A stretch of DNA of 19,467 bases from Candidatus Bathyarchaeia archaeon (GCA_038883795.1 JAVZLK010000030.1:1-19467), one strand, 5' to 3'; counted from the first letter of the stretch, positions 992 through 19,467 are shown. Notes: generated by a model from the letters alone, not told the origin. Numbers and translations are program-made.

Positions 992-1304
992 TAAGCAGCT
1001 ACTTGATTTTTAATTTTTTATCTTATCTAATTTTTTAATATATGAATTTCCAAATAAGTTTGAATAGGTGTATGTCTTTAAATGAATTTTTGAATTTTAA
1101 GGTCAATGCTAGAGTCTTAGCTTATCGAGCTTTGGATTTAGTAGTATGTAAAGAATCTTTTTATTTACTTATTAGTTAATTTTTATAATTTACCACAACC
1201 TTATTATTAAAACGTAAGGGCTGCAGGAACATTGTCAGGCTATAAAAGTCATGAATTGTACTTATGGAAAAATTTTTAGTTTAAAGGATATGGAGGGCGC
1301 ATGG

Positions 1305-1835
1305 ATGCCGTGGGGAAGAACATGGAGTGAAGAGCTAGTTGCTGAATGGCTTGAGCTTGAAGGCTTTCTTGTAACCATCGGACTGAAGGCTGGAACTGGA
1401 GGTCGCGGCGGACGAAAGGAAGCGGATGTTGTGGGTGCAAGAATTAGAAATTCGAAGTTTGAAATAATGCATATAGAAATAGGAGCATTGTATGAGAATA
1501 GTAGGAAAATTGTTGAAACAGTGACTGAAAAGTTCGATTTAAGTAGAGTGGATGCTATTAAAAAATATTTCTCACAGCTTGGTCTCGGAGGACAATATGT
1601 TGAGTATAATAAAATTTATGTTATGTCCTACGCTCGAAAAGATAAAAAAGAAATAAATGAAATGCTTTCTCCTTTCAGTGTTAAGTTTTGGGACATAGAA
1701 GATCTGATTGAAAATATCAAACAAAGCATAGATCGCTGGATTCAAGTTCACAGAACCCCACAAAACCCCTATCCTTCGTTACCAGAAAGCCACTGGTTGT
1801 TAAAGCTATTTAGCATCTTAGCAACAAAGTGGTAA
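1305..1835 (+). CDS. PD-(D/E)XK-superfamily (restriction endonuclease/resolvase-like) protein, ~176 aa
   Basis: SEELVAEWLELEGF...EADVVG...MHIEIG matches the E-helix / D / E-x-(K) layout, with Gly at the usual Lys position. GGAGG at 1292-1296 favours ATG 1305 over the track start at 1251. Confidence 0.65.
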   Translation: MPWGRTWSEELVAEWLELEGFLVTIGLKAGTGGRGGRKEADVVGARIRNSKFEIMHIEIGALYENSRKIVETVTEKFDLSRVDAIKKYFSQLGLGGQYVEYNKIYVMSYARKDKKEINEMLSPFSVKFWDIEDLIENIKQSIDRWIQVHRTPQNPYPSLPESHWLLKLFSILATKW

Positions 1836-1970
1836 AGTCTTTCTGCTTGCTCCTCTCTTTTCACTTTTTTAAATAACGCATAAATTCAGTGTACAACTCA
1901 TTGGCCATTCAACTCATTACTAACACTTGGCTTAAATGTTATTGCATGTTTTATTTTTTGAAAATATTAG

Positions 1971-2159
1971 TTATAATTGTAAGATTGCCTTGAACTTTCT
2001 GGCTTTATATTTAAACTTTTTAGGATCTATTTCTTTCAAATCTATTTCTATTTCAAAGCCCTCATATTCGCAGAAGTCGCATGATATACGAATCATTAGG
2101 TTCTTTCCTATAACTTCAGGCAAAACATAAAGTTGCTGTTTGCATATTGGGCAGATCAA
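1971..2159 (-). CDS. Small Zn-ribbon protein (62 aa) with basic C-terminus
   Basis: CPIC...CDFC pair; GGAGGGG ribosome-binding site just upstream of the TTG start on the minus strand; Lys-rich tail. Confidence 0.6.
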   Translation of the reverse strand: MICPICKQQLYVLPEVIGKNLMIRISCDFCEYEGFEIEIDLKEIDPKKFKYKARKFKAILQL

Positions 2160-2390
2160 AACTGTTACCCCTCCTATTGTATTGGATTTTACACTTTGGT
2201 CAAATTAATAATTACTACATTATTTAATCTCAACCTTTAAATACTTCATAAAATGGATGTCCAGCTAGACTTTTTCATGGTGCTTTGAGTTTTACAAATC
2301 TCAGATATATAAAGCGTTAATGAAATATAGCAATTGGTGACTAATAAAGAAAAGCGAAGAAATATTCTATAAGGGAAAAGGGGAGGCTAG

Positions 2391-5300: not shown

Positions 5301-5720
5301 GTAGTTCCCAAAGTAATGGATGACGACACGCTGAGAAAAGATAAGGAAGTTGAAAAAATAGGAATGCGTATTGCAATGGAGTTTGAAAGAAGACAAGGAA
5401 GAATTCCCGAGGATGTAGCAGATCAAAATCTAGGTTTTGATATACGCTCGGAGGAATCGGACGGAAATGTTAGGTATATTGAAGTTAAGGCAAGGTCTTT
5501 AGATGGAAAAATTGCTCTGACACCGAATGAGTGGCTTATGGCACATCGTTTAGGAAAAGAGTATTGGCTTTATATTGTGATAAACGCTTCCCATTCGCCC
5601 GAACTTTTCACCATACAAAACCCAGCAGAGAAAATTAAACCAAAAGAGGAGGTAGAAATAGTGCGATATATTATATCAGACTGGAAAGGCTTAGCTAAAA
5701 AGGAAACGGTTGGTGCATGA
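2391..5720 (+). CDS. SNF2-family (SF2) helicase/ATPase with C-terminal DUF3883 (NOV_C) PD-(D/E)XK nuclease domain
   Basis: LLADDPGAGKT (Walker A), VDEAH, TATPH, STEAGGEGINLQ, YDLPWNPNRLEQRMGRIHR; C-terminal GFDIRS...RYIEVKAR...LTPNEW...YWLYIV; GGGGAGG site before TTG. Confidence 0.92.
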   Translation: MSQEFPEPESILEGPFWPERVKVISSKAIGSNLEIRAIGLKTQRFYSNIFTEGDLSKVRQIEVKRKDFSGEGEAFFLAIEAHRIRHAFQFDPLFAVNVSQIDPLPHQIDAVYNYILKHPRVRFLLADDPGAGKTIMAGLVLTELKQRGLVNRTLIVVPGHLTDQWLREMKEKFGETFKVIDRGVMEASWGQNVWQNENQAITSIDFAKQEDVMCSLAESNWDLVIVDEAHKMAAYQYGQKLTRTERYKLGELLSRNSNFLIFLTATPHRGDPSNFRLLLDLLEPGFFASNEMLGESIKNKDNPLFLRRLKEDLKNFDKTPLFPPRRVVTIKYRLSDDEKRLYNAVTMYVQEYWNKAMQKEKRNVAFALLVLQRRLASSVRAVRLSLERRRNRLQELFEQGKIIQEMGYFDEEALDDSPEVERWRKEDEFLERLTSAETLEELSKEIDALDELIKLAKEAEKKEIETKLGELKKVMEKEELWKSGEKILIFTESRDTLEYLVEKIRSWGYSVTSIHGGLNLDRRINAEHEFREKTQVMVSTEAGGEGINLQFCWLMVNYDLPWNPNRLEQRMGRIHRYGQRYEVRIYNLVAVDTREGQLLEKLFEKLDIIRHHLGSDRVFDVIGDVIRGKSLQDLIVEAVTNKRSMDDILKDIERVTDEEAVEMVKQATLEGLATRHIDLSRILGEARIAKENRLIPEYIERFFIKAAEKLGLNVEMRTDGFWRVQSVPYELRNQTFEFKTKFGEVFREYNKFSFDKEKAFKERAEFVAPGHPLLEAVVEKVLQNFSKDLDRGAVFLDPSGSMDGFIWFLEVIISDGMGSIAGKRIFVLYQDVQNNIKQIAPSILWDLKPYDFFGSRADWLVPDEEFILSFAVERVLPNYLRELKEQRIRDAEIKRKYGVRSLHELILISEAKLLEYETRRAKGENIPDITIQNEKRNKEDLERKKGQLERQIELETNLLPSSPVILGVARVVPKVMDDDTLRKDKEVEKIGMRIAMEFERRQGRIPEDVADQNLGFDIRSEESDGNVRYIEVKARSLDGKIALTPNEWLMAHRLGKEYWLYIVINASHSPELFTIQNPAEKIKPKEEVEIVRYIISDWKGLAKKETVGA

Positions 5721-5721
5721 A

Positions 5722-8421
5722 ATGGAAGATAAAAGGCTTATAGAAGTTGACTTCCCTCTAAAGGAAGTGAGTGAGGAATCGGTAAGAGAAAAAAACATAC
5801 GACATGGGCATATTTCTACTCTTCATATTTGGTGGGCCAGACGTCCATTAGCTGCATCAAGAGCCACCATTTTCGCCTCCCTGATTCCTGCACCAAAAAA
5901 CCATGATGAGTTAATGAGAAAACTTCAGTTTGTCGCCGAACTTTCAAAATGGGAGAACTCTCTCAATCAACGGATAATAGAGAATGCTAGAAAAGAAATC
6001 AGAGAGTTCTTCGGAGGAAGACCACCAAAGGTTTTAGATTGCTTTGCTGGAGGAGGGGCAATCCCTTTTGAAGCTTTAAGGCTTGGTTGCGAAGCTTTTG
6101 CTTTAGAATACAATCCTGTTGCAGTGTTAATACTCAAAGCAGTACTAGAATATCCGCAAAAATTCGGAAAGACAACAAACGGAAAACAAGAGCATCTTCA
6201 TTTAACGAACAAAAAGCTCGTTGAAGATGTTCAAAAATGGGGAAAATGGGTTTTGGAGGAGTCGAAAAAGGAAATAGGTAAATTCTTTCTTTCAGATCCT
6301 GACGGAAGCATTCCGGTGGCATTTATCTGGGCGAGAACTATTAAGTGTCAGAATCCTTCGTGCCAGGTAGAAATTCCATTAATGAGGCAATTCTGGTTAG
6401 CTAGAAAGGAAAACAAAAAAATAGCGATAAAAATGCTTGTTGATAAAAAAGATAAGAAGATAGACTTCAAGATAGTTCATGGGAAAGATATAGACTTTGA
6501 CCCCTCGCAGGGTACAGCTAGAAAGGGCACAGCTATATGTCCTATGTGTGGCTCGGCCACAAGATCGATTAGCAAGCTAGCAAAGGCTGGAAAAATTGGA
6601 CAAAAGCTAATCGCTGTTGTGCTATATAACGGGAAAAAGGGAAAGCTGTATAGAGTTGCAAATGAGCGAGACAAGCAGATGTTTAGTGAAGCTGAACAGT
6701 ATTTAGAAGAAAAAGTCAAGAATTGGAAAGGGAACTTCAGCATGATTCCAGATGAGCCTACCCCAGAAGGGAAAGGCCCCGGCGCAGAAAGAGCATTTTC
6801 GGTACGTAATTACGGCCTAAATACATGGGGAGAATTGTTTAATTCTCGGCAAAAACTTGTCCTAGCAACTTTTGCAGAGAAGATTAGGTTCGTGTATAAG
6901 AGACTAAATGAAGAAACTTGTGATACAGAATATAACAAGGCAGTGTGCACCTATTTGGCTTTAGTGTTAAGTAGGGTAGCAGACTTTTCTAACATCCTTT
7001 GCGAATGGCATAACACGTGGGAGTTTACTGCCCATTTATTTTCCAGACAGGCGCTCCAGATGAAATGGGACTACTCTGAACTGAATATTTTCTCGCCAAT
7101 TCTCACAGGAACCTGGGAAAGCATGCTAAGACAAATTCAAAGAGCAATAGAAGCTTCTTGTATCGAGACTCCTTCGTCTACATGCGTTATCGAAGGGACT
7201 GCTACTAGATTGCCTTACGAAGAAGGCTACTTTGACGCCGTGATAACGGATCCTCCGTATTATGATAATGTGCCCTATTCGGACCTCTCGGATTTCTTCT
7301 ATGTATGGTTGAAAAGAACAGTTGGCGAACTCTACCCAGAGATGTTTGCGACTTATCTTACGCCCAAATCCCAAGAAATAGTTGTTCATACTCTTAGACA
7401 TGGCAATAGCATGGAAAAAGCAAAGAGATTCTTTGAAGATATGCTTACAGAGTCTTTCAAGGAAATGTGCAGAGTTTTAAAGCCTGAGGGCATAGCCGTT
7501 GTAGTGTTTGCCTACAAATCAACTGAGGCATGGGAAACAATCATTAACAGCCTTCTAAAATCAGGTCTAGTGCTCACGGCTTCCTGGCCTGTTCATACCG
7601 AAATGAAGGCAAGACTGAGAGCAATGGAAAGTGCAGCTTTGGCTTCTTCTGTTTACATGGTGTGCAGAAAACGGACAAAAGAGCAAATCGCATATTTCAA
7701 TGAAATAAGGGCTGAAATAGACCATAGCATTAAGGAAAAACTTACACAGTTTTGGGAACAAGGGATAAGCGGAGCCGACTTCTTTGTAAGTGCAATAGGT
7801 CCAGCAGTTGAAGTTTTCGGTAGATATTCAAAAGTCGAGAAGCTTTCTGGCGAAGAAGTTTCTGTACAAGAATTACTTGAATACGTAAGAAAAATCGTCA
7901 GCGAATTCGCTTTGGAAAGGGTTTTGAAGAGGGCTGATCTCGGCGGTGTTGATGCTGAAACAAGGTTTTATCTGTTGTGGCGTTGGACTTTTGGTAATAC
8001 TAAGGTGCATTTTGATGACGCGATAAAGCTTTCTCGTCCTATGGGTGTTGAGTTAACGCAGTTGTGGGATGGTGGAAGCTTGGTTAAGAAAGAGAAGGAG
8101 TTTGTCCGGGTGCTTGCTCCTCATGAAAGGGCGAAAGATCCAGCTTTTCTTAAGAAAACGAAGTTTACGTCTATGATTGATGTTCTTCATTATGTGTTAG
8201 TTTTGTGGGAACGTGGGGAAAGAGAAAAGATTAAGGAAGTGTTAAATGAGACTGGGTATGCTGGTAATGAGGTTTTTTGGCAGACTGCCCAAGCCATTTC
8301 TGAAATTCTTCCTCAAGGCGATAAGGAGAAGCAGTTGCTTCAAGGTTTTCTTTACGGTAAAGAAATTTATGTTAAAGAAGCTAGAGGAAAAACCAGTTTG
8401 CTTGACTATATGGAGGGTTAA
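5722..8421 (+). CDS. DUF1156-family adenine-specific DNA methyltransferase with Zn ribbon
   Basis: RLIEVDFPL...STLHIWWARRPLAASRA (DUF1156 N-terminus), LDCFAGGGAIPFEA (SAM-binding motif I), TDPPYYDN (motif IV), CQNPSC/CPMC. ATG 5722, directly after the helicase stop and preceded by GGTG, is preferred over TTG 5710. Confidence 0.92.
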   Translation: MEDKRLIEVDFPLKEVSEESVREKNIRHGHISTLHIWWARRPLAASRATIFASLIPAPKNHDELMRKLQFVAELSKWENSLNQRIIENARKEIREFFGGRPPKVLDCFAGGGAIPFEALRLGCEAFALEYNPVAVLILKAVLEYPQKFGKTTNGKQEHLHLTNKKLVEDVQKWGKWVLEESKKEIGKFFLSDPDGSIPVAFIWARTIKCQNPSCQVEIPLMRQFWLARKENKKIAIKMLVDKKDKKIDFKIVHGKDIDFDPSQGTARKGTAICPMCGSATRSISKLAKAGKIGQKLIAVVLYNGKKGKLYRVANERDKQMFSEAEQYLEEKVKNWKGNFSMIPDEPTPEGKGPGAERAFSVRNYGLNTWGELFNSRQKLVLATFAEKIRFVYKRLNEETCDTEYNKAVCTYLALVLSRVADFSNILCEWHNTWEFTAHLFSRQALQMKWDYSELNIFSPILTGTWESMLRQIQRAIEASCIETPSSTCVIEGTATRLPYEEGYFDAVITDPPYYDNVPYSDLSDFFYVWLKRTVGELYPEMFATYLTPKSQEIVVHTLRHGNSMEKAKRFFEDMLTESFKEMCRVLKPEGIAVVVFAYKSTEAWETIINSLLKSGLVLTASWPVHTEMKARLRAMESAALASSVYMVCRKRTKEQIAYFNEIRAEIDHSIKEKLTQFWEQGISGADFFVSAIGPAVEVFGRYSKVEKLSGEEVSVQELLEYVRKIVSEFALERVLKRADLGGVDAETRFYLLWRWTFGNTKVHFDDAIKLSRPMGVELTQLWDGGSLVKKEKEFVRVLAPHERAKDPAFLKKTKFTSMIDVLHYVLVLWERGEREKIKEVLNETGYAGNEVFWQTAQAISEILPQGDKEKQLLQGFLYGKEIYVKEARGKTSLLDYMEG

Positions 8422-8427
8422 ATAAAA

Positions 8428-11037
8428 ATGAGTGTGAAACCTTGGTGGCAAGTCGCCGTTCCTCATAAAGACATACGTGAAGGAAAGTTAAGTGACTTTG
8501 CAGCGGACCTCAACAGCATCGTGAAAGGACAAGCCCCTACAGAATATTTGGACCCGAGAACTTTCTTTAGTAGAACCCACTTCACAAAAGGATTAAACAA
8601 CATCATCAAAGACGCTGTTAGAGTTCTCTCGGGAGAAGAGAAAAGCCAAATCGTTCAGGTTCAAACACCTTTTGGCGGAGGAAAAACACACGCGCTTATC
8701 TCTCTTTACCATCTGTTCAAGAATAACAGTAAAATCTCAGATTTAGAAAATGTGAAAGAAATTCTCGGCTCAAACGGACTTAATTTACCGAAAGTTAATG
8801 TTGCCGTTTTTGTCGGCACGGTTCCTGACCCATTAAAGGGCAAAACACCCTGGGGAGAAATCGCAGACCAGCTAGGAGACTACAAGAGGTTTGAAGAACA
8901 CGATAAAAAAAGAATCACTCCTGGAAGAGAACTGCTCCAGTCACTGCTAGAAGAAAAACAGCCAACATTAATCCTGATTGATGAACTCACCGAATACATC
9001 GTAAAAGCTAAAGAATTTGAAGACCAAATCTTCGCCTTTTGCCAAGAACTAACTGAAGCCGTCAACGCGTCTGAGCGATGCATGCTTGTTTGCACCCTCC
9101 CATCAAGCGCACCTTACGGCGAGCGCGGAGAAAAAGTTCTAAGCCAACTTCAAAGAGTCTTCGGAAGAATGCAAATAATTTACACGCCAGTTGAAGGCGA
9201 AGAAATATATGAAATCATAAGGAAACGCCTCTTTGAAAGCCTAGGCGACAAAAAAATCCATCAAGACGTTGTTAACGCCTTCTTCGAAATGTACCAAAAA
9301 CTGGGCGAAGAAATCCCACCTGAAACCCGAGAAATTCACTACAAAGAGAAAATGCTTAAGGCATACCCATTTCATCCCGAAACAATCGACATCCTTTTCG
9401 AAAGATGGGGAAGCATACCTACATTCCAAAGAACCCGAGGCGCGCTAAGACTTTTAGCAGAAGTCGTCTCAGACCTATATAACAGACAGTATCCCTCACT
9501 TCTCATAAAACCAGCCCAAATCAACCTTTCCAACCCAAGGCTGCGAAGACTCTTCATCGAACACACAGGCGAAGTATTCGAGTCCGTCATAGCCTCAGAC
9601 ATAAGTGGCGAAAACGCCAAAGCCGTAAGAATCGACAGGCAAATGGGAACAGAGTATTCAAGGTTTAATATAGCCACTGGACTTTCAACCTCCATATTCT
9701 TCTACTCCTTCAGCGGTGGAGAAAGAAAAGGCGCCACAGCCCAAAGACTCAGGCTAGCATTGCTGGAAGAGGGCATTCCTCCAGCAATAATCGGTGACGC
9801 CCTCAAAAGATTGGAAGACCAATTATGGTTCCTCCACTACGAAAACAACCTTTACTACTTCAGCAACATAGTCGGGCTTAACAGGGTAATAATCGACAAA
9901 GAAGAAGTCATCACAGAGAACGATGTAGAATCCGAGTTCAAAAATAGACTCGAAAAGATCGCTGGAACAGACTTCGACGTTTACATATGGCCAGACTCAA
10001 GCAATGATATCCCTGACAATAAAAGAGTAAAATTGGCAATTCTTTCATGCAGTTTTATGGCAGGCGCACGAAAAACAGAACAACTAATAAAAACTCTCAT
10101 CAACACCTACGCTACTGGCTTCAGAACCCACAAGAACAGCCTAATGTTCCTCATAGCCGACCCTAACGAATATGACGGACTAAAACGAGCCATAAAACGA
10201 TTCTGCGCCCTCAACATGATAAAAGCCGAAAAAGAAACAATTAAAAGACTGACAGAAGAGGACCAAAAACGCGTAGAGGAAAGACTGAAAGATGCAGACG
10301 CCTCAATCCCAACCAGAATAATGTCATTATACCGGTATTTGGTTAAGGCCTCAAGAGAAGGAACAAAAACCTACGACCTTGGCATTCCAACAGTCGGTGA
10401 AAAATTAAGCCTGACAAAGAGAGTCAAAGACTATCTTAAAAGCCAAGAATTACTGTTGGAAAGAATTTCTCCGAAAGTAATGGTTGAGAAAACATTTGCC
10501 AAAGGAGAACAAACGAAACACGTCGCCGAAGTGCGAGAAGCCTTCCTAAAATTCCCAGAATTACCACTTCTCGAAAGCGAGCAAACATTCTATAACGCAG
10601 TGATTCAAGGAGTAAAAGACGGAACAATGGGACTCCTAATCAACGACAAACTGCGCTATAAAGAAGTGATATCTACAATGGAGATACAAGACGATGCAAT
10701 TATAGTAACCAAAGAGTTTGCTGAAAAACAAAAGGAAAAAGAAGGCATAACAGAAAAACCAAAAGAGGAGGAGGAAAAAGAAAGAGAAAGAGAAACAAAG
10801 GCCAAAGAAGGAATAATTACAAAAGTATATCTAAGAACAGATGTGCCATGGGATAAACTCTCAGACTTCGTCCGCGGCGTTGTGATACCGCTAAGCACAG
10901 AAGGCGCCCAAATCTCGCTGGAAATCAAGGTTGAAGCCCAATCAGACAAAGGAATAAACAAGCATACCTTAGATTCGAAGGTTAAAGAAACCTTAAACCA
11001 AATCGGGGCAAAAATTATAGAAGAAAAAGAGGAGTGA
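8428..11037 (+). CDS. DUF499-family AAA+ ATPase
   Basis: KPWWQVAVPHKDI, FAADL, QTPFGGGKTH (Walker A), LILIDE (Walker B), AYPFHPE, FQRTRGALRLLA; 6 bp downstream of the methyltransferase. Confidence 0.9.
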   Translation: MSVKPWWQVAVPHKDIREGKLSDFAADLNSIVKGQAPTEYLDPRTFFSRTHFTKGLNNIIKDAVRVLSGEEKSQIVQVQTPFGGGKTHALISLYHLFKNNSKISDLENVKEILGSNGLNLPKVNVAVFVGTVPDPLKGKTPWGEIADQLGDYKRFEEHDKKRITPGRELLQSLLEEKQPTLILIDELTEYIVKAKEFEDQIFAFCQELTEAVNASERCMLVCTLPSSAPYGERGEKVLSQLQRVFGRMQIIYTPVEGEEIYEIIRKRLFESLGDKKIHQDVVNAFFEMYQKLGEEIPPETREIHYKEKMLKAYPFHPETIDILFERWGSIPTFQRTRGALRLLAEVVSDLYNRQYPSLLIKPAQINLSNPRLRRLFIEHTGEVFESVIASDISGENAKAVRIDRQMGTEYSRFNIATGLSTSIFFYSFSGGERKGATAQRLRLALLEEGIPPAIIGDALKRLEDQLWFLHYENNLYYFSNIVGLNRVIIDKEEVITENDVESEFKNRLEKIAGTDFDVYIWPDSSNDIPDNKRVKLAILSCSFMAGARKTEQLIKTLINTYATGFRTHKNSLMFLIADPNEYDGLKRAIKRFCALNMIKAEKETIKRLTEEDQKRVEERLKDADASIPTRIMSLYRYLVKASREGTKTYDLGIPTVGEKLSLTKRVKDYLKSQELLLERISPKVMVEKTFAKGEQTKHVAEVREAFLKFPELPLLESEQTFYNAVIQGVKDGTMGLLINDKLRYKEVISTMEIQDDAIIVTKEFAEKQKEKEGITEKPKEEEEKERERETKAKEGIITKVYLRTDVPWDKLSDFVRGVVIPLSTEGAQISLEIKVEAQSDKGINKHTLDSKVKETLNQIGAKIIEEKEE

Positions 11038-11124
11038 TGATTCAATTCATGGTAAGGCTGGTTTTGTGTCCTAGCATTTAGGTCTTTAACGGCACGTTTC
11101 ATTTTATAATAAAAATAACTTCAA

Positions 11125-12078
11125 TTATGATGGACTAAACTTAAACTGAAGTTCATAAGTAAAAAGTTTACAGTTTTTTAAAGCCTTTACTGCATATCTC
11201 AGTTCTTCGCTAGAACTTCTTGTGATTATCAAACTTTTCACATTTTTTCCTTTGGCTAAATGTGTCTCTACCCAGCCGAGATATCTAGCTATTTGTCCTA
11301 CAGCCTTGTCTGATGTGTCTTCAGTTCTTTTAAGTTCTATAACGAGAAAATCGCCTTTTTCGTTTTGGTAAAGAAGATCTATTTGCCCCACAATTTTTGT
11401 ATCATAAAGCTCTCCTGTTTCACCGTCCGGTCCTTTGTAAAGCGTGTATCCTTTGTATTCGTCTCCAAGTACTCTGTCCAATGTCGGAAGTTTGGCAAGG
11501 TAATTTCGTAAATCTTCTTCTAACAAATCCCCAAGAGTTCGAGAGATTTCTGGCGGTTGGCTTTTATTCCATTCTATTATTGCATTATAATCACCTATGT
11601 CGACCTGACATATATTGAAACCAAGTTTTCCGCAGTTGTTCATAGATTTAGAGAGTTTTCCTTCTTGAACCCATTTCCGGATCTGTGCCAATTCGAGACC
11701 TTTGTTTAACGATAAATGTAATCTTAATCTTAGGATATGTGGATTTTTTACAAGTCGTTCAGCTTCCTCTTTATTTATTTTACCAGTTTTTATCGCCTTA
11801 TCTATGTCATCTTTTATTACTTCTAAAGCCTCAACTTCATAAATGTTCTTAATCTCTCCAGGATAGTCCTCTACATCGCCCGTGCAGTATTGAAGGACAT
11901 AATCTCCAACTTTCACTTTTCCAAAGTCTCGATCTCGAGTACTTAAATCCCAATCGTCGTGTCTGTAATAATAGTACTTTGAAACCTCTTCAGCATAGGT
12001 TCTGTCTTTATATTCTATTGTTGCGTGTTTAGCCATCTTTCCACTACTTTGTATTAGGAAAACTTGTCTTTGTTTCAT
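11125..12078 (-). CDS. Putative PUA/EVE-like reader domain fused to NucS/DUF91-like endonuclease domain
   Basis: N-terminal KVKVGDYVLQY resembles the EVE/PUA GD motif; C-terminal LEEDLRNYL...GQIDLLY...LVIELKR...AVGQIARYLGWV is the E / D / ExK / QxxxY set of NucS/RecB-like nucleases. Confidence 0.75.
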   Translation of the reverse strand: MKQRQVFLIQSSGKMAKHATIEYKDRTYAEEVSKYYYYRHDDWDLSTRDRDFGKVKVGDYVLQYCTGDVEDYPGEIKNIYEVEALEVIKDDIDKAIKTGKINKEEAERLVKNPHILRLRLHLSLNKGLELAQIRKWVQEGKLSKSMNNCGKLGFNICQVDIGDYNAIIEWNKSQPPEISRTLGDLLEEDLRNYLAKLPTLDRVLGDEYKGYTLYKGPDGETGELYDTKIVGQIDLLYQNEKGDFLVIELKRTEDTSDKAVGQIARYLGWVETHLAKGKNVKSLIITRSSSEELRYAVKALKNCKLFTYELQFKFSPS

Positions 12079-12160
12079 AATAAATAGGTTCTCAGTTTTA
12101 TAAATAAGCCTTTGTAATTTTGTTAAGTTATTAACGTATGCTTACTCTTTATGAAGATAG

Positions 12161-12180
12161 TTTGCAAAGTATTTTGCAAA
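12161..12180. promoter_or_regulatory. Palindromic candidate operator TTTGCAAA-GTAT-TTTGCAAA
   Basis: Two copies of the self-complementary octamer TTTGCAAA 4 bp apart in the intergenic gap upstream of the 12078 gene. Confidence 0.3.
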
Positions 12181-12245
12181 AATGTTTGTAATCATGTTTT
12201 ACATTTAGTGCGAATATATAAAATCTTTACACATGAAACAAAGTC

Positions 12246-13139
12246 TCACAAACCTATCTCTAACTTTATCCGGTGAGCGTCTTTAAGTAGCTCGTGAAGT
12301 CTTACTATTTTTGTGTACTCGATTATTCGAGCATCTGACTTCATCTCATGAAATGATCCGTTGAGAAGCCACTCCGCCTGGTTCATGTATTCTTCGGTAG
12401 TTATAAGGCAAGGTTTGCTGTTCCATTTGTCCCACGCATGTTTAAGTTTTGTCAATGCTTCATAGAAGTTCCCAGCCATTTGAACCTCAAAAGCCCACTT
12501 TGGATTCCCTGTAGGGATGCTCTTCCAGACCACATCCAAGCGCAAATTTTCAATGGGATACTCCATTTCTGAGATCTTACCTTCGAACTTTCCGATTTCA
12601 TATATCATTCTTTTAACTTCGTCGTGCGTATGCTTTCTTTCGACTTTAGACCCCTCTCTACTAGTTTCCTCGGTCACGGTTTCTATTGCAAAATCTTTTG
12701 GTAATGGATTATTTGCCATAGTTTGGTCTATGATTTTAAAATCCAATTCAGGAATGGGTCTTCCAAAATTTGCAGGTGTTCCCCGCAAGTACACTCCGGG
12801 CTTTGACTTATTTTCGATGAAACTAAGGCTTGGCACTAGTTCTGAAAGTTTAGCCAACCCTTCTTTTACAACCTCAACATTTACTTGGTAGGGATATATA
12901 ATGCGACCTTCGCTTTTCTCATCGGACCAAGTCAGCTCTGTGGCTCTATACCAATTGCTAGCTATCCTAAGGATAGAAAGGAATGCCTTCTTATCAGTAC
13001 TATACAGTATAAGAAAGTCACCAACAGTAACTTTTTTTGTAATATTAGGATTTTTAACTGCCCAAACCTTCTTTTCTCTTGAAATTTTCCAATTTTCGTG
13101 TCTGACAGAGAAGATCCAATATTTTGAGTTTGTAGTCAA
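12246..13139 (-). CDS. EVE domain + PD-(D/E)XK nuclease (putative modification-dependent, type IV-like restriction enzyme)
   Basis: KYWIFSVRHENW...VWAV...VTVGDFLILY...TWSDE...IYPYQV...LSFIENK is a typical EVE domain; C-terminal HDEVK...EY...RLDVVW...AFEVQ...ALTKL is PD-(D/E)XK with ExQ. Confidence 0.8.
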   Translation of the reverse strand: MTTNSKYWIFSVRHENWKISREKKVWAVKNPNITKKVTVGDFLILYSTDKKAFLSILRIASNWYRATELTWSDEKSEGRIIYPYQVNVEVVKEGLAKLSELVPSLSFIENKSKPGVYLRGTPANFGRPIPELDFKIIDQTMANNPLPKDFAIETVTEETSREGSKVERKHTHDEVKRMIYEIGKFEGKISEMEYPIENLRLDVVWKSIPTGNPKWAFEVQMAGNFYEALTKLKHAWDKWNSKPCLITTEEYMNQAEWLLNGSFHEMKSDARIIEYTKIVRLHELLKDAHRIKLEIGL

Positions 13140-13356
13140 ACAGATCGACCTATCATTATTCTACTGATTTTTGTATATAAAATAATGTAATTTATGGCAA
13201 GTATTTAAAACAATACCTAAACTAAGATTACCCGTAATTTTCTACAATCTTATTTAGACTTAACGGAACTAGCCAGCCTTATCTCTGAGCTTAAATTTTA
13301 TTGTGTCTATATCACTGCGCTGATTTTCTTTATAAAAGCAATTTTTGCATAGTTTT

Positions 13357-13370
13357 GAAAAACTTTTTAT
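13357..13370 (+). promoter_or_regulatory. Archaeal BRE + TATA-like promoter for a probably leaderless cas10 transcript
   Basis: GAAAAA-C-TTTTTAT ending 26 nt before ATG 13397; no SD motif before that ATG. Confidence 0.45.
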
Positions 13371-13396
13371 TCTCTTAAAATGAATTTATTGATAAT

Positions 13397-15292
13397 ATGT
13401 TGGCAGCAACCCAGCTTGACTTAGTCCGAATGAGCGCGATTTTGCACGACATAGGCAAACTGGAGTGTTGGTCTAAGAGAAGACCTTGGTCGGAGCACGT
13501 GTTCTTTACCTTTAACTTCGTTAAAAAGTGTCTCGGGGAGGAGCTCGCTTGGCATGCCAGGAGACATCATGTTGGTCCATCATACTCGGAGGTCGATAGA
13601 CCCTGCGATGAACTCGAGAAAATAATATCCTTGGCAGATCACTTGGCATCAGGGGCGGACAGGAGGGATCAGACCATTCATGGTCCGCCCTTGCCCAGTC
13701 CACCGATAGAACTGGCTCACCCCCTCTCCAAAGAAGCGGTTATGGAGAGGCTCGGCGCCGCGGATCTGGCTTACATCTTGCAGGAGATAGCCCAACGGCT
13801 GGGAAACCTTGAAAAGGGCTTTGCGGAAGACCCTAAAAAATGTTATTTCCAGGTTTTTGAGATCTTAAGGAGCTCAGGGTTAAGGAGGGTCCCCGCCGAC
13901 ACTAGAAAGCCCGTAAACGACGTCTCACTCTGGGACCACTTGAAGCTCACCGCTGCCATATCAACGTGTATAACCCTTGAAGGATTCAAGGGGGATGACC
14001 CTAATCATTACAAATTTGCGATACTGAGCGGAGACTCTGACAGGATATCTGCTTTCATAAACCAATCGAGGCGCCTCCCAGATTTGAACGCCAGGAGTCA
14101 GCTCGTGAAGGATGCGACAAGCCAAGCAGTACAGTTCGTTTGTAAAGAGCTCGGTCCTGAGTGTGTGCTCTTCTCCGCGGGCGGAAGCGTTTTGGTTATA
14201 TCTCCAACAAATCTTGCGGAAAAGCTACTTTACGGAATCAAGAGGACTTTTGAGTCTGCCGCAAACGATATGCTCACCATGACAGTGAGCAGCATCGTGG
14301 TCGACGGTGTGGAGCTGAGCGAAGACTTCGGGCACGTTTGGGAATCTGCGAGGACAGCCATGAGGATTGCCAAGGGGAGGCGCATCGCTTTGCCAAAGGT
14401 CTTTGTTGAGGAAGGAGTAGACTTATGCGATGTGTGCGGCATCCGCCCGTACACAAAGGAGGATCTTGAGAAAATTTTGCCTTTCGATGCTTCCCCAAGG
14501 TACGAGAGGCTATGCGAGCCTTGTTGGAGCCTAAGAAAGAGAGGTAAAGGGGTATGGCTCGACGAACTTAAAGACTCGAATGGGCTCGTAGGGTGCGTTA
14601 GGATGGACGGTGACAACGTGGGAGCGGTCCTTTCTGGCAAGCTTTTCAGAGATTTGGGCAAGGCGAGCACCCCGTCGAGAATCTCTACTGTCAGCGCTCT
14701 GATCCAAAGAATATGTGAAGATAGCTTTAAAGGAGTCCTAGGCAAGTTTAACGGGGAGAGGGGTATCATATTTGCAGGGGGCGACGACCTCCTAGCATTT
14801 GTGCCCGGTAAGGATTCGATGGCGGCGGCTTTAGAACTTGCATCAGATTTTAAGGAAAAAACAGCAGGGGCATGCACGATTTCGGCGGGCGTTGCCATCT
14901 TCCATTACGACCTGCCAGTTTATGTGGGTCTCGAGTCCGCGAACGCTCTACTCCGTAGGGCGAAGGAAGGCGGCAAAAACAGGGTCGCATTCGCTTTCCT
15001 GAGGGGGTCTGCAGTGGGGGAGAGCGAACTTGAGAGATTTAAGCCAAGAACTTGGGATGAGCTTAAGCACTTGATCGATCTAACAAAATTTATGGGGATG
15101 GGCGGAGTATCATCCTCCCAGCTCAGGAGCTTTGCTTCCGTTAGAGACCCCGAATACGCTGAAATTCTGATCAAGAACAGGATGGGGAGGGGGCGGATTG
15201 GATGGGAAGAGGGCGAGGGTTTGCTCTCAGCCCTAAAGTCAGGGTTGCTGACCGATGCGTTTTTGGTATACAAAACACTGGAGGCCAGTTAA
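13397..15292 (+). CDS. cas10: Type III CRISPR large subunit Cas10 (HD nuclease + palm/cyclase), compact 631 aa
   Basis: ILHDIGKL, HH, ADHLASGADR, SLWDHLKLTAA, LSGDSDRISAFI, Zn finger CDVC...CEPC, RMDGDNVG, IFAGGDDLL, ISAGVAI. Confidence 0.95.
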   Translation: MLAATQLDLVRMSAILHDIGKLECWSKRRPWSEHVFFTFNFVKKCLGEELAWHARRHHVGPSYSEVDRPCDELEKIISLADHLASGADRRDQTIHGPPLPSPPIELAHPLSKEAVMERLGAADLAYILQEIAQRLGNLEKGFAEDPKKCYFQVFEILRSSGLRRVPADTRKPVNDVSLWDHLKLTAAISTCITLEGFKGDDPNHYKFAILSGDSDRISAFINQSRRLPDLNARSQLVKDATSQAVQFVCKELGPECVLFSAGGSVLVISPTNLAEKLLYGIKRTFESAANDMLTMTVSSIVVDGVELSEDFGHVWESARTAMRIAKGRRIALPKVFVEEGVDLCDVCGIRPYTKEDLEKILPFDASPRYERLCEPCWSLRKRGKGVWLDELKDSNGLVGCVRMDGDNVGAVLSGKLFRDLGKASTPSRISTVSALIQRICEDSFKGVLGKFNGERGIIFAGGDDLLAFVPGKDSMAAALELASDFKEKTAGACTISAGVAIFHYDLPVYVGLESANALLRRAKEGGKNRVAFAFLRGSAVGESELERFKPRTWDELKHLIDLTKFMGMGGVSSSQLRSFASVRDPEYAEILIKNRMGRGRIGWEEGEGLLSALKSGLLTDAFLVYKTLEAS

Positions 15293-15293
15293 A

Positions 15294-15827
15294 GTGTCCG
15301 AAGAGAAGGAATTGAAAAAAGAGGGGGAGAATCTCGCCAGGCTTGCTGTTGAGAGGGGCTTAGCTGCGAAGCAGCTGCAGATGATATACAAAGTCATAAG
15401 AACCAAGCCCTTGCCTTTTGCCGAGGCGTTCGTCCAGAGGCAGTTATCAAGGGCCCTTGAGGGCACCATGCAGGGCGCAGAGGTTCTCGAAAAAATACTT
15501 GAAATGTTGAAAAGGTATGAAAACGACAAGCTGGTCATTGAGAGGATCATTATGTATGCCGTCATGCTTTACCCTTACTACGAAAGGGCGCCGCTCCTAA
15601 AAATGATGAGGTATGCCGAGCCTGTGGTTAGGGAAATACTCAAAAGGAACGGTCTTTCACTCGACAGGTTGGAGCCCCAGCTCCATGGCAACACTGTTAT
15701 ATTGAACGTCCATATACCCAACTTCAGGGACAACCCCAAGATTCTCGCTGGCGAGATCGAGAAAGGGCTCAGGTCAGAAGAAAACCTGTCAGGGGTTAGC
15801 CTAAGGGTCTGGATAAAATCAAGGTAA
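15294..15827 (+). CDS. cas11: Probable type III small subunit (Cas11/Csm2-like) with additional C-terminal alpha/beta domain, ~177 aa
   Basis: Located between cas10 and cas7; helical N-terminal ~105 aa (GLAAKQLQMIY...FVQRQLSR). GTG 15294 lies 1 nt after the cas10 stop with GGAGG upstream, so it is preferred over ATG 15255. Confidence 0.65.
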   Translation: MSEEKELKKEGENLARLAVERGLAAKQLQMIYKVIRTKPLPFAEAFVQRQLSRALEGTMQGAEVLEKILEMLKRYENDKLVIERIIMYAVMLYPYYERAPLLKMMRYAEPVVREILKRNGLSLDRLEPQLHGNTVILNVHIPNFRDNPKILAGEIEKGLRSEENLSGVSLRVWIKSR

Positions 15828-15840
15828 CGGGGGTGAAACC

Positions 15841-16542
15841 GTGGTATTTGAGAAATTGGAGAAGAGGTTGATAATATCCGGAACCTTGGAGGCCGTAACG
15901 CCGATACACATCGGCTCCGGTAAAGCGGAGGTGGAGATACAGCAGGTGGACATGCCTGTGCTGACGGACACCGAGGGGAGACCCTACATACCGGGCTCCT
16001 CTTTGAAGGGGCGAGTCAGGGCTGAAGCAGAGAGGATCGCAAGGAAGCTCGGTAAATACGTGTGCAACCCGCCCGATGTTAAAACAATGTGCGGATCCCT
16101 AAAGGGAGATCCCGAGGACTTCTGCATATGTTGCAGGATCTTCGGAACTGCTGGCGAGATCTCGGTCGCCAGCAAGGTGAAATTCAGGGATTCTTTCCCG
16201 CTCCAAAAGGTGGACGAGTTGCTTGAGCGGACTGGAATCGCAATAGACAGAGGTAAGGGAACAGTTTCGAGAGGGGCCCTATACACAATCCAGGCGGTGC
16301 CAGCCGGGACCAAATTCAGCCTCGAGATAGTGGGCGAAAACCTATCGGACGAAGAACTTGAGCTTTTGAGGGCCGCCCTCAAGTCGGTTCAGGACTCAAG
16401 CGTCGGAGGATCTTCGACTAGGGGCTTCGGAAAAGTCAGAATAAAAATAGAGAGTGTCAAGGAGAGGAGTGCCGAGTATTACCTGGGAAAGGAGGAAGAG
16501 AGGGTCATCGGCGGCGAGCAATGGTTAGCGAGTGAGGACTGA
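15841..16542 (+). CDS. csm3: Cas7-group RAMP backbone subunit (Csm3/Csx7-like), catalytic Asp present
   Basis: TPIHIGSG, VDMPV (Asp at the Csm3 RNase position), PYIPGSSLKGRVR, Cys cluster C...C...CICCRIFG, RTGIAIDR thumb, VGGSSTRGFG G-loop; GGGGTG ribosome-binding site. Confidence 0.92.
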   Translation: MVFEKLEKRLIISGTLEAVTPIHIGSGKAEVEIQQVDMPVLTDTEGRPYIPGSSLKGRVRAEAERIARKLGKYVCNPPDVKTMCGSLKGDPEDFCICCRIFGTAGEISVASKVKFRDSFPLQKVDELLERTGIAIDRGKGTVSRGALYTIQAVPAGTKFSLEIVGENLSDEELELLRAALKSVQDSSVGGSSTRGFGKVRIKIESVKERSAEYYLGKEEERVIGGEQWLASED

Positions 16543-17684
16543 TGGATTTCTGCCACAGGATCTCGGGCGTGCTAAGGGCTGTCACACCTATCCACATTGG
16601 CTCAGGCTCTAGGACCGGAGTCATAAAGCACTCCAGAAAATTCATACCAGGGGCGGCGATTCGGGGCGCAGTCGGCACGGCTGTTATAAAGCTGGTCTGC
16701 AGGCGGAAAGCTCCCTTGGTCAGACACGAAGAATGCGAATATTTCAACGATTGTTTGTACGTTAGGCTTTTTGGAGAGGAGTACGGCAAACCCTCAAAGA
16801 TTTTTTTCAGGTATGCGTACCCCCTCCATTTAACCTGCGGAGGGGCATTCAGACCTACGCCGAAGACTCTATACAGGTGCAACAATCCTCAGTGCCGGAA
16901 GCTTTTCGAGTCCTTCCTTCCGATGGACGCCTGCGATCTGTGTGGGTCCACCGTTAAGCCTTTGAGGGGTTTCAGGTGCGACAAGTGCGGCGAGGTGGAG
17001 ACAAAGCCAGTTAGTACCTCCCGAATAACTTTGACTGCGGTTGAGAGAAAGAGCCTTTCTGCCGCGCAGGTGGGAGGAGGAGCCGGCACTTTACACTCGC
17101 TCGAGGTAATCTCGGCTGGCGCCAAGTTCGGCTTCGAATTGATGGTCTATGGGGCTAATGAAGAAGAGCTGGATGTGCTAAAGGAGATCATAGTAAGGGC
17201 TTTACCGGACGAAGGCCTTGGGGGGTCAAAGTCTAGGGGGCTAGGGAAGGTAGTAGTTGAAAACTTTAATATAAGCACCATCGGCGAGAGCGACCTGAAA
17301 GCGCGATCATCTGCCATAAATCCCAACCGATTCAGCGTAGAGGTCCTCTCGCCAACGGTATTAGAAGGCGACATACTTGATCCCTCGGTATTACTGGAGA
17401 GCATCAGGAGGGTCTACACGATGGCTTATCACGCAGGTAAGCCCGCTTTGCCATCCCTTGAACTCGAGAATTGGGCGGCCGAGGGTGAGACTTATACCGG
17501 TTGGTCCCTGAGATGGAACAGAAGGCGCGAGGTCAGACCAGCCCTTTCGGCAGGATCTATCTTCGAATTTCGGTCCAAGGTAGGGGGCATCGAACTAGCA
17601 ATGGGTCTTTCGGCGCTCGAAATGTATGCGATCGGTGGCTATAAGCCACATGGATGTGGTCAAATATTTGTAAAAAGCGCGTAG
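16542..17684 (+). CDS. csx10: Cas7-Cas5 fusion RAMP (Csx10-like) with Cys-rich insertion
   Basis: Two RAMP units: TPIHIGSG/IPGAAIRG/LGGSKSRGLG, then LSPTVL/LSAGSIFEF/IGGYKPHGCG. TGATG overlap with the upstream gene. Confidence 0.75.
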   Translation: MDFCHRISGVLRAVTPIHIGSGSRTGVIKHSRKFIPGAAIRGAVGTAVIKLVCRRKAPLVRHEECEYFNDCLYVRLFGEEYGKPSKIFFRYAYPLHLTCGGAFRPTPKTLYRCNNPQCRKLFESFLPMDACDLCGSTVKPLRGFRCDKCGEVETKPVSTSRITLTAVERKSLSAAQVGGGAGTLHSLEVISAGAKFGFELMVYGANEEELDVLKEIIVRALPDEGLGGSKSRGLGKVVVENFNISTIGESDLKARSSAINPNRFSVEVLSPTVLEGDILDPSVLLESIRRVYTMAYHAGKPALPSLELENWAAEGETYTGWSLRWNRRREVRPALSAGSIFEFRSKVGGIELAMGLSALEMYAIGGYKPHGCGQIFVKSA

Positions 17685-17720
17685 GGAGGTGTACAAAGCA
17701 GAGAGCCAGAGAATTTTTAG

Positions 17721-17793
17721 CGTGGGTTAGCCCGGATTTTTGTACCGATCCCCTGGCGTAACCGTCCGGCTAACGACGAAGGTAGACCAGGGA
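17721..17793 (+). other. Candidate structured RNA element (long hairpin with possible pseudoknot) between csx10 and the CARF gene
   Basis: CGT..GTTAG-C-CCGGA (17721-17736) complementary to TCCGG-CTAAC.ACG (17765-17778); loop CCCTGG (17751-17756) complementary to CCAGGG (17787-17792). Confidence 0.3.
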
Positions 17794-17892
17794 CTGTGCG
17801 AGCCATTGAGATTGTCAGAAAGGCACACCATCGAAATTTTCTGCGAAGTCGTTAAAAGGTCCGATCATCCCATTTATAACCGTGAAGATGCC

Positions 17893-19095
17893 TTGAAGGC
17901 CCTTGTAATTTCCGTGGGGACCGGGACCCTTGGAAGCGATGAAAACACTAAGGGTCTCGCTGAGGCGCTAGCCTACAGCGTGAGGCACCACTCGCCCGAT
18001 AAAGTATTCTTCGTAGTGACCAAGGAAAGTGCTGAGAAAACCTTGCCCAAGGTGCTCCAAGTATTGAAAGAGTTTGATTATGAGATAATTGAACTTAAAA
18101 GTCCGGACAACCTCCAACATATATACGACGAGCTCAGGGGCAAGATAGCAGCGATCAGGAGGAGCTACAGTTACTTTGTGGTAGACTTCACTTCTGGAAC
18201 CAAATCCATGACCGCCGCATTGGCAATTTTGGGCGCAATCTACGGTGCTAACGAACTTAGCTACATTTCGGGTAAGAGGCAGGGAGGAGTTGTCCAGTCT
18301 GGGACGGAACATATACTATCGATCCGCCCATATTTCATCATAGCTGAACAGAGGTTCATTATGGCTGTCGAGTTTTTTAATGCTTCCCAGTATGAGGCGT
18401 GTGCTTCGATTCTCAGAAATATTTTAAGTATGACAAGGGACCCCGACATCTTACAACGGTTTGAACCGATTTTGAGGCTCGCCGAAGCCTACGCGATGTG
18501 GGACAGATTCCAGCACCAAAAAGCCTTCGATGCTATCAGGGAAATAGGAATGAAAGAGATCGAAAAGAACAAACGATTCCTGGGCAAGTTATTGAACGCA
18601 TATTCTAAAGGGAAGGATGTGGAGCCATACATAATAGCCGACCTAATCAACAATGCCAGAAGGAGGGGAGAATGCGAACTAAAGTATGACGACGCCGTGG
18701 CGAGACTTTACAGGACGACCGAGCTAATAGCCCAATACAAGTTGAAGAGAGATCACCAAATAGATGCTTCGAAGGCAGATCCCTGCCAGATGCCGCCCGA
18801 ATTGATCTCAGAGCGGGGAATGAAGATCGACGGACCCATAAAACTCGGTCTGGACAAGTCCTATAGGCTCCTATTTTCGAAAGGTGACGAGTTGGGCAAG
18901 TATTACGTCGAAAACGAAGAATTAAGGGGATTACTCTCAAAGCGGAACCTTTCAATACTTGCTCACGGGATTGAGCCGGTGGATAGGAATACATACGTAA
19001 AACTTTTGGAATTTGTTACGCAATTAGCACATAAAACAGTTGAAGACCTTCACACACTACTTGAGGATTCCGCTTTCATAAAAATACTACAATAA
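17893..19095 (+). CDS. csm6: CARF-HEPN ancillary ribonuclease (Csm6-like, TIGR02710 family), ~400 aa
   Basis: KALVISVGTG and VDFTSGTKSMTAAL (CARF motifs), AYAMWDRF, DLINNARRR, YDDAVARLYR, RNLSILAHG (HEPN R-x6-H). TTG 17893 starts the first CARF strand, so the 51 extra residues in the track ORF (from 17740) are probably non-coding. Confidence 0.85.
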   Translation: MKALVISVGTGTLGSDENTKGLAEALAYSVRHHSPDKVFFVVTKESAEKTLPKVLQVLKEFDYEIIELKSPDNLQHIYDELRGKIAAIRRSYSYFVVDFTSGTKSMTAALAILGAIYGANELSYISGKRQGGVVQSGTEHILSIRPYFIIAEQRFIMAVEFFNASQYEACASILRNILSMTRDPDILQRFEPILRLAEAYAMWDRFQHQKAFDAIREIGMKEIEKNKRFLGKLLNAYSKGKDVEPYIIADLINNARRRGECELKYDDAVARLYRTTELIAQYKLKRDHQIDASKADPCQMPPELISERGMKIDGPIKLGLDKSYRLLFSKGDELGKYYVENEELRGLLSKRNLSILAHGIEPVDRNTYVKLLEFVTQLAHKTVEDLHTLLEDSAFIKILQ

Positions 19096-19203
19096 TTGCG
19101 AAGATCCTTCATCAAGTTTATCGGAAAAAAGATCTTCACGGAGCTTCAACCATTCTGATGAGAGAAATAGTTTTTTGAGAGAAAATCAAAAAATCAATAA
19201 AGC
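19096..19203 (+). promoter_or_regulatory. CRISPR leader
   Basis: 108-bp AT-rich non-coding stretch with A/T tracts directly before repeat 1; contains the inverted repeat GAAGATC (19100-19106) / GATCTTC (19131-19137). Confidence 0.65.
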
Positions 19204-19467
19204 GTAGCAATGACTCCAAAGAGGAAGAGCTAACTGAAACCAGAGATCTCTTTCGGGACGCTCACGTAGAGGTAGGGTAGCAATGACTCCAAAGAGGAAG
19301 AGCTAACTGAAACCACTTACCCTGTCCACAACTTTTCCGCATACCCTACGTAGCAATGACTCCAAAGAGGAAGAGCTAACTGAAACTTGCGTTCCAATAC
19401 TTCGAGGAGAATAAGGAGTTGCGTAGCAATGACTCCAAAGAGGAAGAGCTAACTGAAACAACCGTAT
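19204..19467 (+). CRISPR. CRISPR array, 37-bp repeat GTAGCAATGACTCCAAAGAGGAAGAGCTAACTGAAAC, truncated by window end
   Basis: Four identical repeats at 19204-19240, 19277-19313, 19350-19386, 19423-19459; three unique 36-nt spacers plus 8 nt of a fourth. The GAAAC 3' end and leader position give + orientation. Confidence 0.98.

Follow-up and report, generated by a model that had tools for sequence, protein, structure and literature searches.

The CRISPR-Cas systems of type III that most resemble the locus described here belong to subtypes III-D and III-A. The former is represented by the solved complexes of Synechocystis III-Dv (8s9t-8s9x) and Saccharolobus SsoCsm (8bmw); in the III-Dv complex one chain consists of Cas7, then Cas5, then Cas11, connected by linkers (PMC11026444), and PMC11229360 reports an HD domain in 3% of III-D loci. 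Among the subtypes with few effector genes, III-H has been modelled as seven copies of Cas7, one Cas5 and one Cas10 (PMC12669027), and PMC12669027 and PMC11229360 describe III-F, III-G and III-H, as well as III-C, as having an inactivated Cas10 cyclase and no CARF effectors. The 2025 classification also gives 23 complete Bathyarchaeota genomes without detectable CRISPR-cas (PMC12669027). Here we analysed a 19,467-nt stretch of DNA (the window) from a Candidatus Bathyarchaeia archaeon (GCA_038883795.1 JAVZLK010000030.1:1-19467), which contains a type III module encoding Cas10, a small subunit, Cas7, Cas5 and a CARF-HEPN ribonuclease. This is probably a compact and complete interference module of four subunits, which lacks a cap, is competent for signalling and is similar to both III-D and III-A.

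The five genes are packed on the plus strand in the order cas10, small subunit, cas7, cas5 and CARF-6H-HEPN (Table 1). The cas10 and small-subunit genes are 1 nt apart and the small-subunit gene and cas7 13 nt apart, while cas7 and cas5 overlap by 1 nt. The gene positions and sizes given in the original prediction (631, about 177, 233 and 380 aa, about 1,420 aa in total) agree with the open reading frames (ORFs), the four effector proteins summing to 1,421 aa, and the CARF-HEPN gene and array that it placed downstream are both present. Assignment to type III is straightforward, as a Cas10 with palm and cyclase domains and Cas7 and Cas5 RAMP subunits are encoded beside a CRISPR array. The window is an entire contig (C30) from a genome bin of 81 contigs, and it stops inside the array. 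For this reason the window alone is unable to prove that the four-gene set is minimal, and that argument is carried by its relatives.

Cas10 matches the Pfam families HD, Cmr2_N and Cas10-Cmr2_palm2 (PF22335, 107 bits) and passes the NCBIfam Csm1 model TIGR02578 with 179 bits (cut-off 170). With the PADLOC models it scored 177 bits for the generic CAS-III Cas10, 94.6 for Cas10a, 33 for Cas10d and 21 for the III-A/F model, and the Cmr2 model covered only the C-terminal third, with 85 bits. In an alignment with seven homologues of 44-52% identity, one of which lacks the N-terminus, the residues H17 D18, D213/D215 (the GDxD of palm1) and C344/C347/C373/C376 are conserved, and D404/G405/D406 (DGD) and G461-D464 (GGDD) are invariant. 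The HD and GGDD motifs of the two Cas10 active sites are both present, as originally proposed. A profile of the clade searched against 1.84 billion representatives retrieved 21 proteins of 573-697 aa at 434 bits or more, plus fragments, and the next full-length Cas10 proteins were 708-936 aa long and scored at most 182 bits. At the sequence level this Cas10 thus belongs to a separate, short clade, a placement based on the gap in profile scores and on scans with PADLOC models that covered ten of the 150 representatives listed. For nine of these ten outgroup proteins the Cas10d models give about 84-127 bits; the tenth resembles the generic or III-A type. A tblastn search against plasmids for the Cas10 reference set gave seven partial matches only.

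The Cas7 protein passes both the Csx7 model TIGR02581 (146.7 bits, cut-off 108) and the Csm3 model TIGR02582 (96.5 bits, cut-off 90) and scores 127.7 bits with PF03787. TIGR03986, of the Cas7-insertion type, covers only part of the protein and reaches 65 bits against a cut-off of 161. The best sequence match in the PDB is the III-D Cas7 paralogue 8bmw_H (3.9e-27). When the protein is aligned with the solved Csm3 proteins of M. jannaschii and T. onnurineus, D37 falls on the Asp of their G-x-D-N-P-V motif, the catalytic residue of Csm3. Four cysteines are invariant across the seven Cas7 homologues.

The 380-aa protein encoded by the last effector gene had been read as a Cas7-Cas5 fusion, and this reading is ruled out by structure comparison. 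PADLOC Cas5_IIId models match its full length with 68.9 and 66 bits, and the RAMP family is also matched; the Csm4 model TIGR01903 gave no match and the PADLOC Csm4 model 20.7 bits. In the AlphaFold2 (AF2) model (predicted local distance difference test score, pLDDT, 86), residues 1-380 align end to end with residues 242-590 of 8s9v_A, the 'Cas7-Cas5-Cas11' chain of Synechocystis III-Dv, with Z 26.9 and a root mean square deviation of 3.2 over 318 aligned residues. This segment comes after the N-terminal Cas7 part of that chain, so that the match is to its Cas5 (Csx10) domain alone. The next full-length fold matches are Cmr3 (Z 20.3), the type VII Cas5 (Z 19.3) and Csm4 (Z 16.6). Matches to Csm3 are confined to residues 1-252, which is what the first RRM of a Cas5 should give. 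As modelled, the protein is a single Cas5 of the Csx10 type with two RRMs and a Cys-rich insert. Among 28 sequences, C99, C113, C118, C131, C134, C146 and C149 are invariant, together with two G-rich loops. The seven cysteines, lying between residues 99 and 149, suggest that the insert at about 99-150 is a probable double zinc ribbon.

The small subunit had no match in Pfam, NCBIfam or PADLOC. A profile search of the PDB gave as its best hit Csm2 (5an6_A), at a non-significant E value of 0.043. Homologues begin at residue 14 of the longer, 190-aa ORF. The AF2 model obtained from an alignment of 16 sequences has a pLDDT of 95 and features five helices (residues 3-118) followed by a beta-beta-alpha-beta unit (125-176). 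When this model was compared with 48,161 PDB chains using VIA-align, 12 of the 14 entries in the top 50 that matched the helical part were type III small subunits or Cas11-like domains. The best was 8bmw_A (Z 10.6, a chain of 121 residues), and the others include Csm2 from four species (6ifk_D, Z 9.3), Cmr5 (9arw_F, Z 8.5; 2zop_A; 4gkf_B), the Cas11 parts of III-Dv and III-E proteins and a Cmr2 C-terminus. A Foldseek search with the same model returned nothing at E <= 0.001, its only entries being zinc-transporter-like. The C-terminal domain resembles RimP-N, KH-like, OsmC and CDF-CTD folds at Z 7-10, inside the noise range of the tool. Judged from the model, the protein combines a helical bundle resembling Cas11 with an additional domain of alpha/beta type, and it occupies the position of csm2 in the gene order. 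Prediction of a complex between Cas10 and the small subunit gave a score of 0.59, the best of three controls scoring 0.00; the runs share at least 94% of contacts and the partner pLDDT is at least 85. Of 80 solved complexes, 58 attain the mark applied to such predictions, as do 2 of 110 mismatched pairs; only seven of the 80 solved complexes attain it at a score of 0.60 or under, together with both mismatches. Support from this prediction is weak.

Conservation of the module was followed in two sets of loci, one of 24 named loci from species-representative genomes and one fetched separately, which derive from the same collection, overlap and are not additive. (Loci, genomes and contigs are cited by our own L, G and C numbers.) The 24 named loci were found with a Cas5 alignment as the query; a single Cas5 sequence returned none. 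Within the order, 12 of 201 genomes contain the Cas5; within the class, 17 of 401 do. Across 401 genomes of the phylum the Cas5 profile gave 20 matches, ten of them full or near-full length (three outside the class) and ten weak, partial matches to other RAMPs. The order cas10-cas11-cas7-cas5, identified with profile hidden Markov models, is found in 20 of the 24 named archaeal loci, and it is constant in the separately fetched loci too. The remaining four (L069, L074, L079 and L080) are contig-end pieces or remnants, and among the 20 ordered loci L063 and L076 have a cut or short cas10, L071 and L077 a split or short cas5. Most named carriers are Bathyarchaeia/Bathyarchaeota metagenome-assembled genomes (MAGs), with a few Methanosuratincola, Terraquivivens and Nitrososphaeria MAGs.

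The relatives also speak to the completeness of the gene set. The module's own two genes are the only PF03787 matches in the whole genomes of 12 of 15 relatives, including one of three contigs that is 97% complete, in agreement with the four-gene effector originally proposed; the genome of the window likewise has two PF03787 matches. The exceptions are G001, with one match at a cut contig, G100, with four more on another contig, and G041, with one more. The Csm5 model TIGR01899 reached only 16.6-19.5 bits (cut-off 38.3) in five of five genomes, in every case inside the module's own cas7, and the absence of a separate Csm5 is thereby upheld. TIGR03984, presumably the Csx19 model, had no match in five genomes in a search made without a positive control. 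No conserved extra ORF was found within or flanking the cassette across loci. Past the arrays, where further RAMP genes would have told against the original prediction, the relatives carry unrelated genes for an acetyltransferase, a PIN protein, parts of ABC transporters, regulators and others.

The partner protein matches TIGR02710 with 199 bits, the Pfam families Csm6 HEPN, Csm6_6H and CARF, and the PADLOC model CARF1--CARF_HEPN with 338 bits, and contains an R-x6-H motif (RNLSILAH). Its homologues align from residue 52, which makes TTG 17893 the likely start. The array reaches to within 8 nt of the contig end and was the sole array found in the assembly by a k-mer scan. Its repeat folds into a weak hairpin (z -2.06) that leaves ACUGAAAC unpaired at the 3' end, and the repeats of the module form a conserved family across loci (...CAATGACTC...GAAGAG...GAAAC/G). 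Of the 24 named loci, 16 have an array adjoining the module and 10 have a CARF-HEPN gene there; the commonest layout in relatives is cas5, array, CARF-HEPN, and that of the window (cas5, CARF-HEPN, array) is also seen in L054/L057. Arrays in relatives extend up to 19-29 repeats. In two loci, L038 and L055, a Cas_APE2256 CARF protein of 260-265 aa (about 102 bits) takes the place of CARF-6H-HEPN, which indicates that the effector is swapped on a constant four-gene core.

The genes cas6, cas1 and cas2 are in none of the module loci, and the module is thus not self-sufficient in any obvious way. Matches to the Cas6 model TIGR01877 occur at E <= 0.01 in 11 of 18 carrier genomes, five of them above the cut-off and all of them elsewhere in the genome. 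G254 has a weak match to Cas6 some 460 kb away from the module, next to Cas1, to an operon labelled type I-like on the basis of ORF sizes only and to an array with 61 copies of a different repeat. The genome of the window contains no cas6 detectable by PF01881 or TIGR01877. It does contain a full Cas1 gene (346 aa) on contig C8, with no array or recognisable cas2 or cas4 beside it, and split or stop-interrupted Cas1 pieces on C49 and C28, neither of which carries an array. We infer that spacer uptake is supplied from other loci, as pre-CRISPR RNA cutting by Cas6 probably is.

From the analogy to Csm and III-D complexes that have been solved, the assembly, stoichiometry and activities of the complex can be proposed as follows. 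The Csx10-type Cas5 and Cas10 would hold the 8-nt 5' tag of the CRISPR RNA (crRNA), probably ACUGAAAC, copies of the single Cas7 would form the backbone along the 36-nt guide, and copies of the Cas11-like protein would make up the minor filament. A complementary transcript, once bound, would be cleaved by Cas7 at D37, and its binding would also turn on the Cas10 HD nuclease and GGDD cyclase, and the cyclic oligoadenylate (cOA) so produced would activate the adjacent CARF-6H-HEPN RNase. As there is no head subunit of the Csm5/Cmr1 type, the 3' end of the filament would be left uncapped or be closed by Cas7 or Cas11.

When the module is set against known subtypes, Cas5 points to III-D, whereas Cas10 and the gene order point to III-A. 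The likeness to III-D lies in a Cas5 of the Csx10 type that marks this subtype, although its match to the curated Csx10 model stays under the cut-off, in the Cas7 whose closest PDB sequence is a chain of 8bmw and in the small subunit whose closest fold is found in the same complex. The module differs from III-D in having one Cas7 gene where III-D has several paralogues or fusions (PF03787 matches number only two in its own genome and in 12 of 15 relatives), in lacking a Cas7-insertion protein, in the additional C-terminal domain of its Cas11 and in a Cas10 of 631 aa with HD, compared with 829 aa for 8bmw_K. With III-A it shares the gene order (csm1-csm2-csm3-csm4), proteins that pass the Csm1 and Csm3 cut-offs, HD, GGDD and a partner of the Csm6 class. 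It departs from III-A in having no Csm5, in a Cas5 that is Csx10-like rather than Csm4-like (68.9 bits for Cas5_IIId and 20.7 for Csm4; Z 26.9 and 16.6, respectively), in a Cas10 about 120-180 aa shorter than solved Csm1 proteins (756-813 aa) and in a locus free of cas6 and cas1/2. The small number of effector genes, the single Cas7 and the lack of adaptation genes recall III-F and III-H, but the invariant GGDD and DGD and the adjacent CARF-HEPN gene set the module apart from III-F, III-H, III-C and III-G, and the III-A/F model matches its Cas10 with only 21 bits. Its proteins fall below the cut-offs of the Cmr4, Cmr6 and Cmr3 models of III-B. A typing program would probably label the module III-D or III-A, and the claim that it fits no standard subtype was overstated, given a III-D Cas5, a Csm3/Csx7 Cas7, a Cas10 that passes as Csm1 and the csm1-csm4 order. 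We think it likely that the module represents a reduced lineage that combines a III-D-type Cas5 with a III-A-like gene order and an unusually short, HD-bearing Cas10 of III-A-like type. The original view of a streamlined, signalling-competent variant was largely right as to the four genes, HD/GGDD and CARF-HEPN, and is better expressed in terms of such a III-D/III-A-like lineage.

Several observations weigh against this interpretation. The DNA past the array of the window is unassembled and the genome only 87% complete, and PF03787 and TIGR01899 are able to miss divergent RAMPs and any non-RAMP subunit. The Csx10 model TIGR02674 spans the full 380-aa protein yet scores 57.9 bits, far below its cut-off of 177, and the column of Cas7 D37 is D in four of seven homologues and E in three. 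At the sequence level nothing significant connects the small subunit with Cas11, and its fold scores of Z 6.8-10.6 lie within the range that the tool flags as unsafe for helical bundles; its Cas11-like assignment therefore rests on the enrichment of small subunits among the fold matches, the gene position and the non-significant Csm2 match. TIGR01877 found no match in 7 of 18 carrier genomes, that of the window included, which leaves crRNA maturation unexplained in those genomes. One alternative is that the effector is incomplete and relies for its head subunit, or for further components, on a second type III locus or on a non-RAMP gene elsewhere that escaped recognition. The additional RAMP genes in G100 and G041, the clear supply of Cas6 and Cas1 in trans and the limited reach of family searches for divergent proteins are in keeping with this, whereas 12 of 15 relatives, including genomes 97-99% complete, have no other RAMP match and no conserved extra gene flanks the cassette, so that we consider it improbable. 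Still harder to credit is a decaying or domesticated remnant without immune function. Cas5 is indeed present only as fragments in L079 (182 aa) and L080 (90 aa), cas5 is broken or shortened in two of the ordered loci, and the window shows four repeats only. However, all catalytic motifs are kept at 43-58% identity across classes, arrays in relatives reach 19-29 repeats, and the array of the window is cut by the contig end and not naturally short.

The module could also be an ordinary member of III-D (or III-A), already catalogued, whose minimal look is normal variation in a heterogeneous subtype. Both Cas5_IIId and Csx10 models run the full length of its Cas5, the best structural match of which is the III-Dv Cas5 domain, the Csm1, Csm3 and Csx7 models pass their cut-offs and most of the nearest outgroup Cas10 proteins scanned match Cas10d. 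Full-text searches of the literature turned up no account of this variant, and supplementary tables of classification papers may already list the loci. We nevertheless hold ordinary membership to be unlikely: the several Cas7 paralogues and the Cas7-insertion protein of III-D are missing, Cas10 has the HD domain that is so infrequently reported for III-D, its clade is set off by a gap of more than 250 bits, and the protein of the window scores only 33 bits with Cas10d. Somewhat more plausible, though doubtful, is an unclassified lineage at the level of a subtype, four-subunit, cap-less and fully signalling-competent, for which three special features may be proposed. The alpha/beta domain of Cas11 might assume the part that the absent Csm5/Cmr1 head would play at the RNA end or in target binding; without Cas6, the conserved repeat family belonging to the module might be processed into mature crRNA by the Csx10-type Cas5 with its zinc ribbon or by a different subunit; and the lineage would be concentrated in Bathyarchaeia. 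The reduced lineage with III-D and III-A traits remains the interpretation that we prefer.

The G+C content is 0.51-0.535 over the type III genes (window positions 13001-19000) and 0.33-0.45 upstream (1001-13000), a difference in keeping with the module having arrived horizontally. Of the cassettes found, the closest belongs to a genome from another class and has the same layout, with 57.5% identity in cas10 and 79% in cas7. Upstream in the window lies a three-gene Hma defence system, which beside the type III module makes the contig a defence island. Between Hma and cas10 are genes for a 297-aa protein with an N-terminal EVE domain and a 317-aa protein with a C-terminal NucS/PD-(D/E)xK-like nuclease domain (PADLOC candidate PDC-S02, 67 bits), and zinc phospholipase C-like and lamin-tail domains occur in a protein that is truncated where the contig starts. 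In three of the separately fetched loci a gene for a DEDD-type exonuclease (212-233 aa, RNase_H_2/PolB-exo), absent from the window, lies directly upstream of cas10 on the same strand; its product could shorten crRNA at the 3' end or break down the signal. A conserved protein of 230-247 aa, encoded divergently from cas10 in four loci, may be a regulator, its sole match being a faint ArsR-type helix-turn-helix (E 0.0086). L037 carries another array, which lies 3.8 kb upstream of cas10 and comprises 19 copies of an unrelated 37-nt repeat, and superoxide dismutase and M50 peptidase genes lie between that array and cas10.

Table 1. Coordinates of the features in the window and in related loci.
Feature	Sequence	Coordinates	Strand	Description
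Truncated protein gene	window	2-664	-	Cut by contig start
Hma defence system	window	2391-11037	+	Three genes
HmaA	window	within 2391-11037	+	SNF2 helicase with NOV_C, 722 bits
HmaB	window	within 2391-11037	+	DUF1156 adenine methylase, 498 bits
HmaC	window	within 2391-11037	+	DUF499 ATPase, 496 bits
Two genes between Hma and cas10	window	11125-13139	-	297 and 317 aa
cas10	window	13397-15292	+	631 aa: HD nuclease, palm1, zinc finger, palm2 cyclase with GGDD, short C-terminal helical domain
Small subunit gene (Cas11-like)	window	15294-15827	+	177 aa; ORF open from 15255 (190 aa)
cas7	window	15841-16542	+	233 aa, Csm3/Csx7 type; sole backbone subunit gene
cas5	window	16542-17684	+	380 aa, Csx10 (III-D) type; Cys-rich insert about 99-150
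CARF-6H-HEPN RNase gene	window	17893-19095	+	Csm6/Csx1 class; ORF open from TTG 17740
Putative leader	window	19096-19203	+	A+T-rich, 108 nt, read from sequence; function inferred
CRISPR array	window	19204-19467	+	4 repeats of 37 nt, 36-nt spacers, 73-nt spacing
Cas_APE2256 CARF gene	L038	8483-9280
Cas_APE2256 CARF gene	L055	601-1383
DEDD-type exonuclease gene	L028	5644-6294
DEDD-type exonuclease gene	L032	5715-6353
DEDD-type exonuclease gene	L038	14062-14763
Divergent 230-247-aa gene	L028	4826-5530
Divergent 230-247-aa gene	L029	5371-6090
Divergent 230-247-aa gene	L032	4904-5596
Divergent 230-247-aa gene	L033	11500-12243
Second array	L037	3-1410

A short Cas10 of about 630 aa and a 1,421-aa gene set are now defined for reconstitution. 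The gain in size over a Csm complex is modest, which makes the value of the module as a compact RNA-sensing tool, suggested in the original prediction, speculative. The Cas11 with its added domain and the seven of 18 carriers without detectable Cas6 are oddities open to experiment. The loci document CRISPR-Cas in MAGs of Bathyarchaeia and neighbouring Thermoproteota, whereas the census of complete genomes reported none for Bathyarchaeota (PMC12669027). If the interpretation given here is true, both Cas10 activities and cOA signalling would be workable in a headless complex that has just one kind each of Cas7, Cas5 and Cas11-like protein, which would bear on the real need for Csm5/Cmr1. Many uncultured archaea have kept the module, which appears to be a known kind of system in streamlined form rather than a new one.

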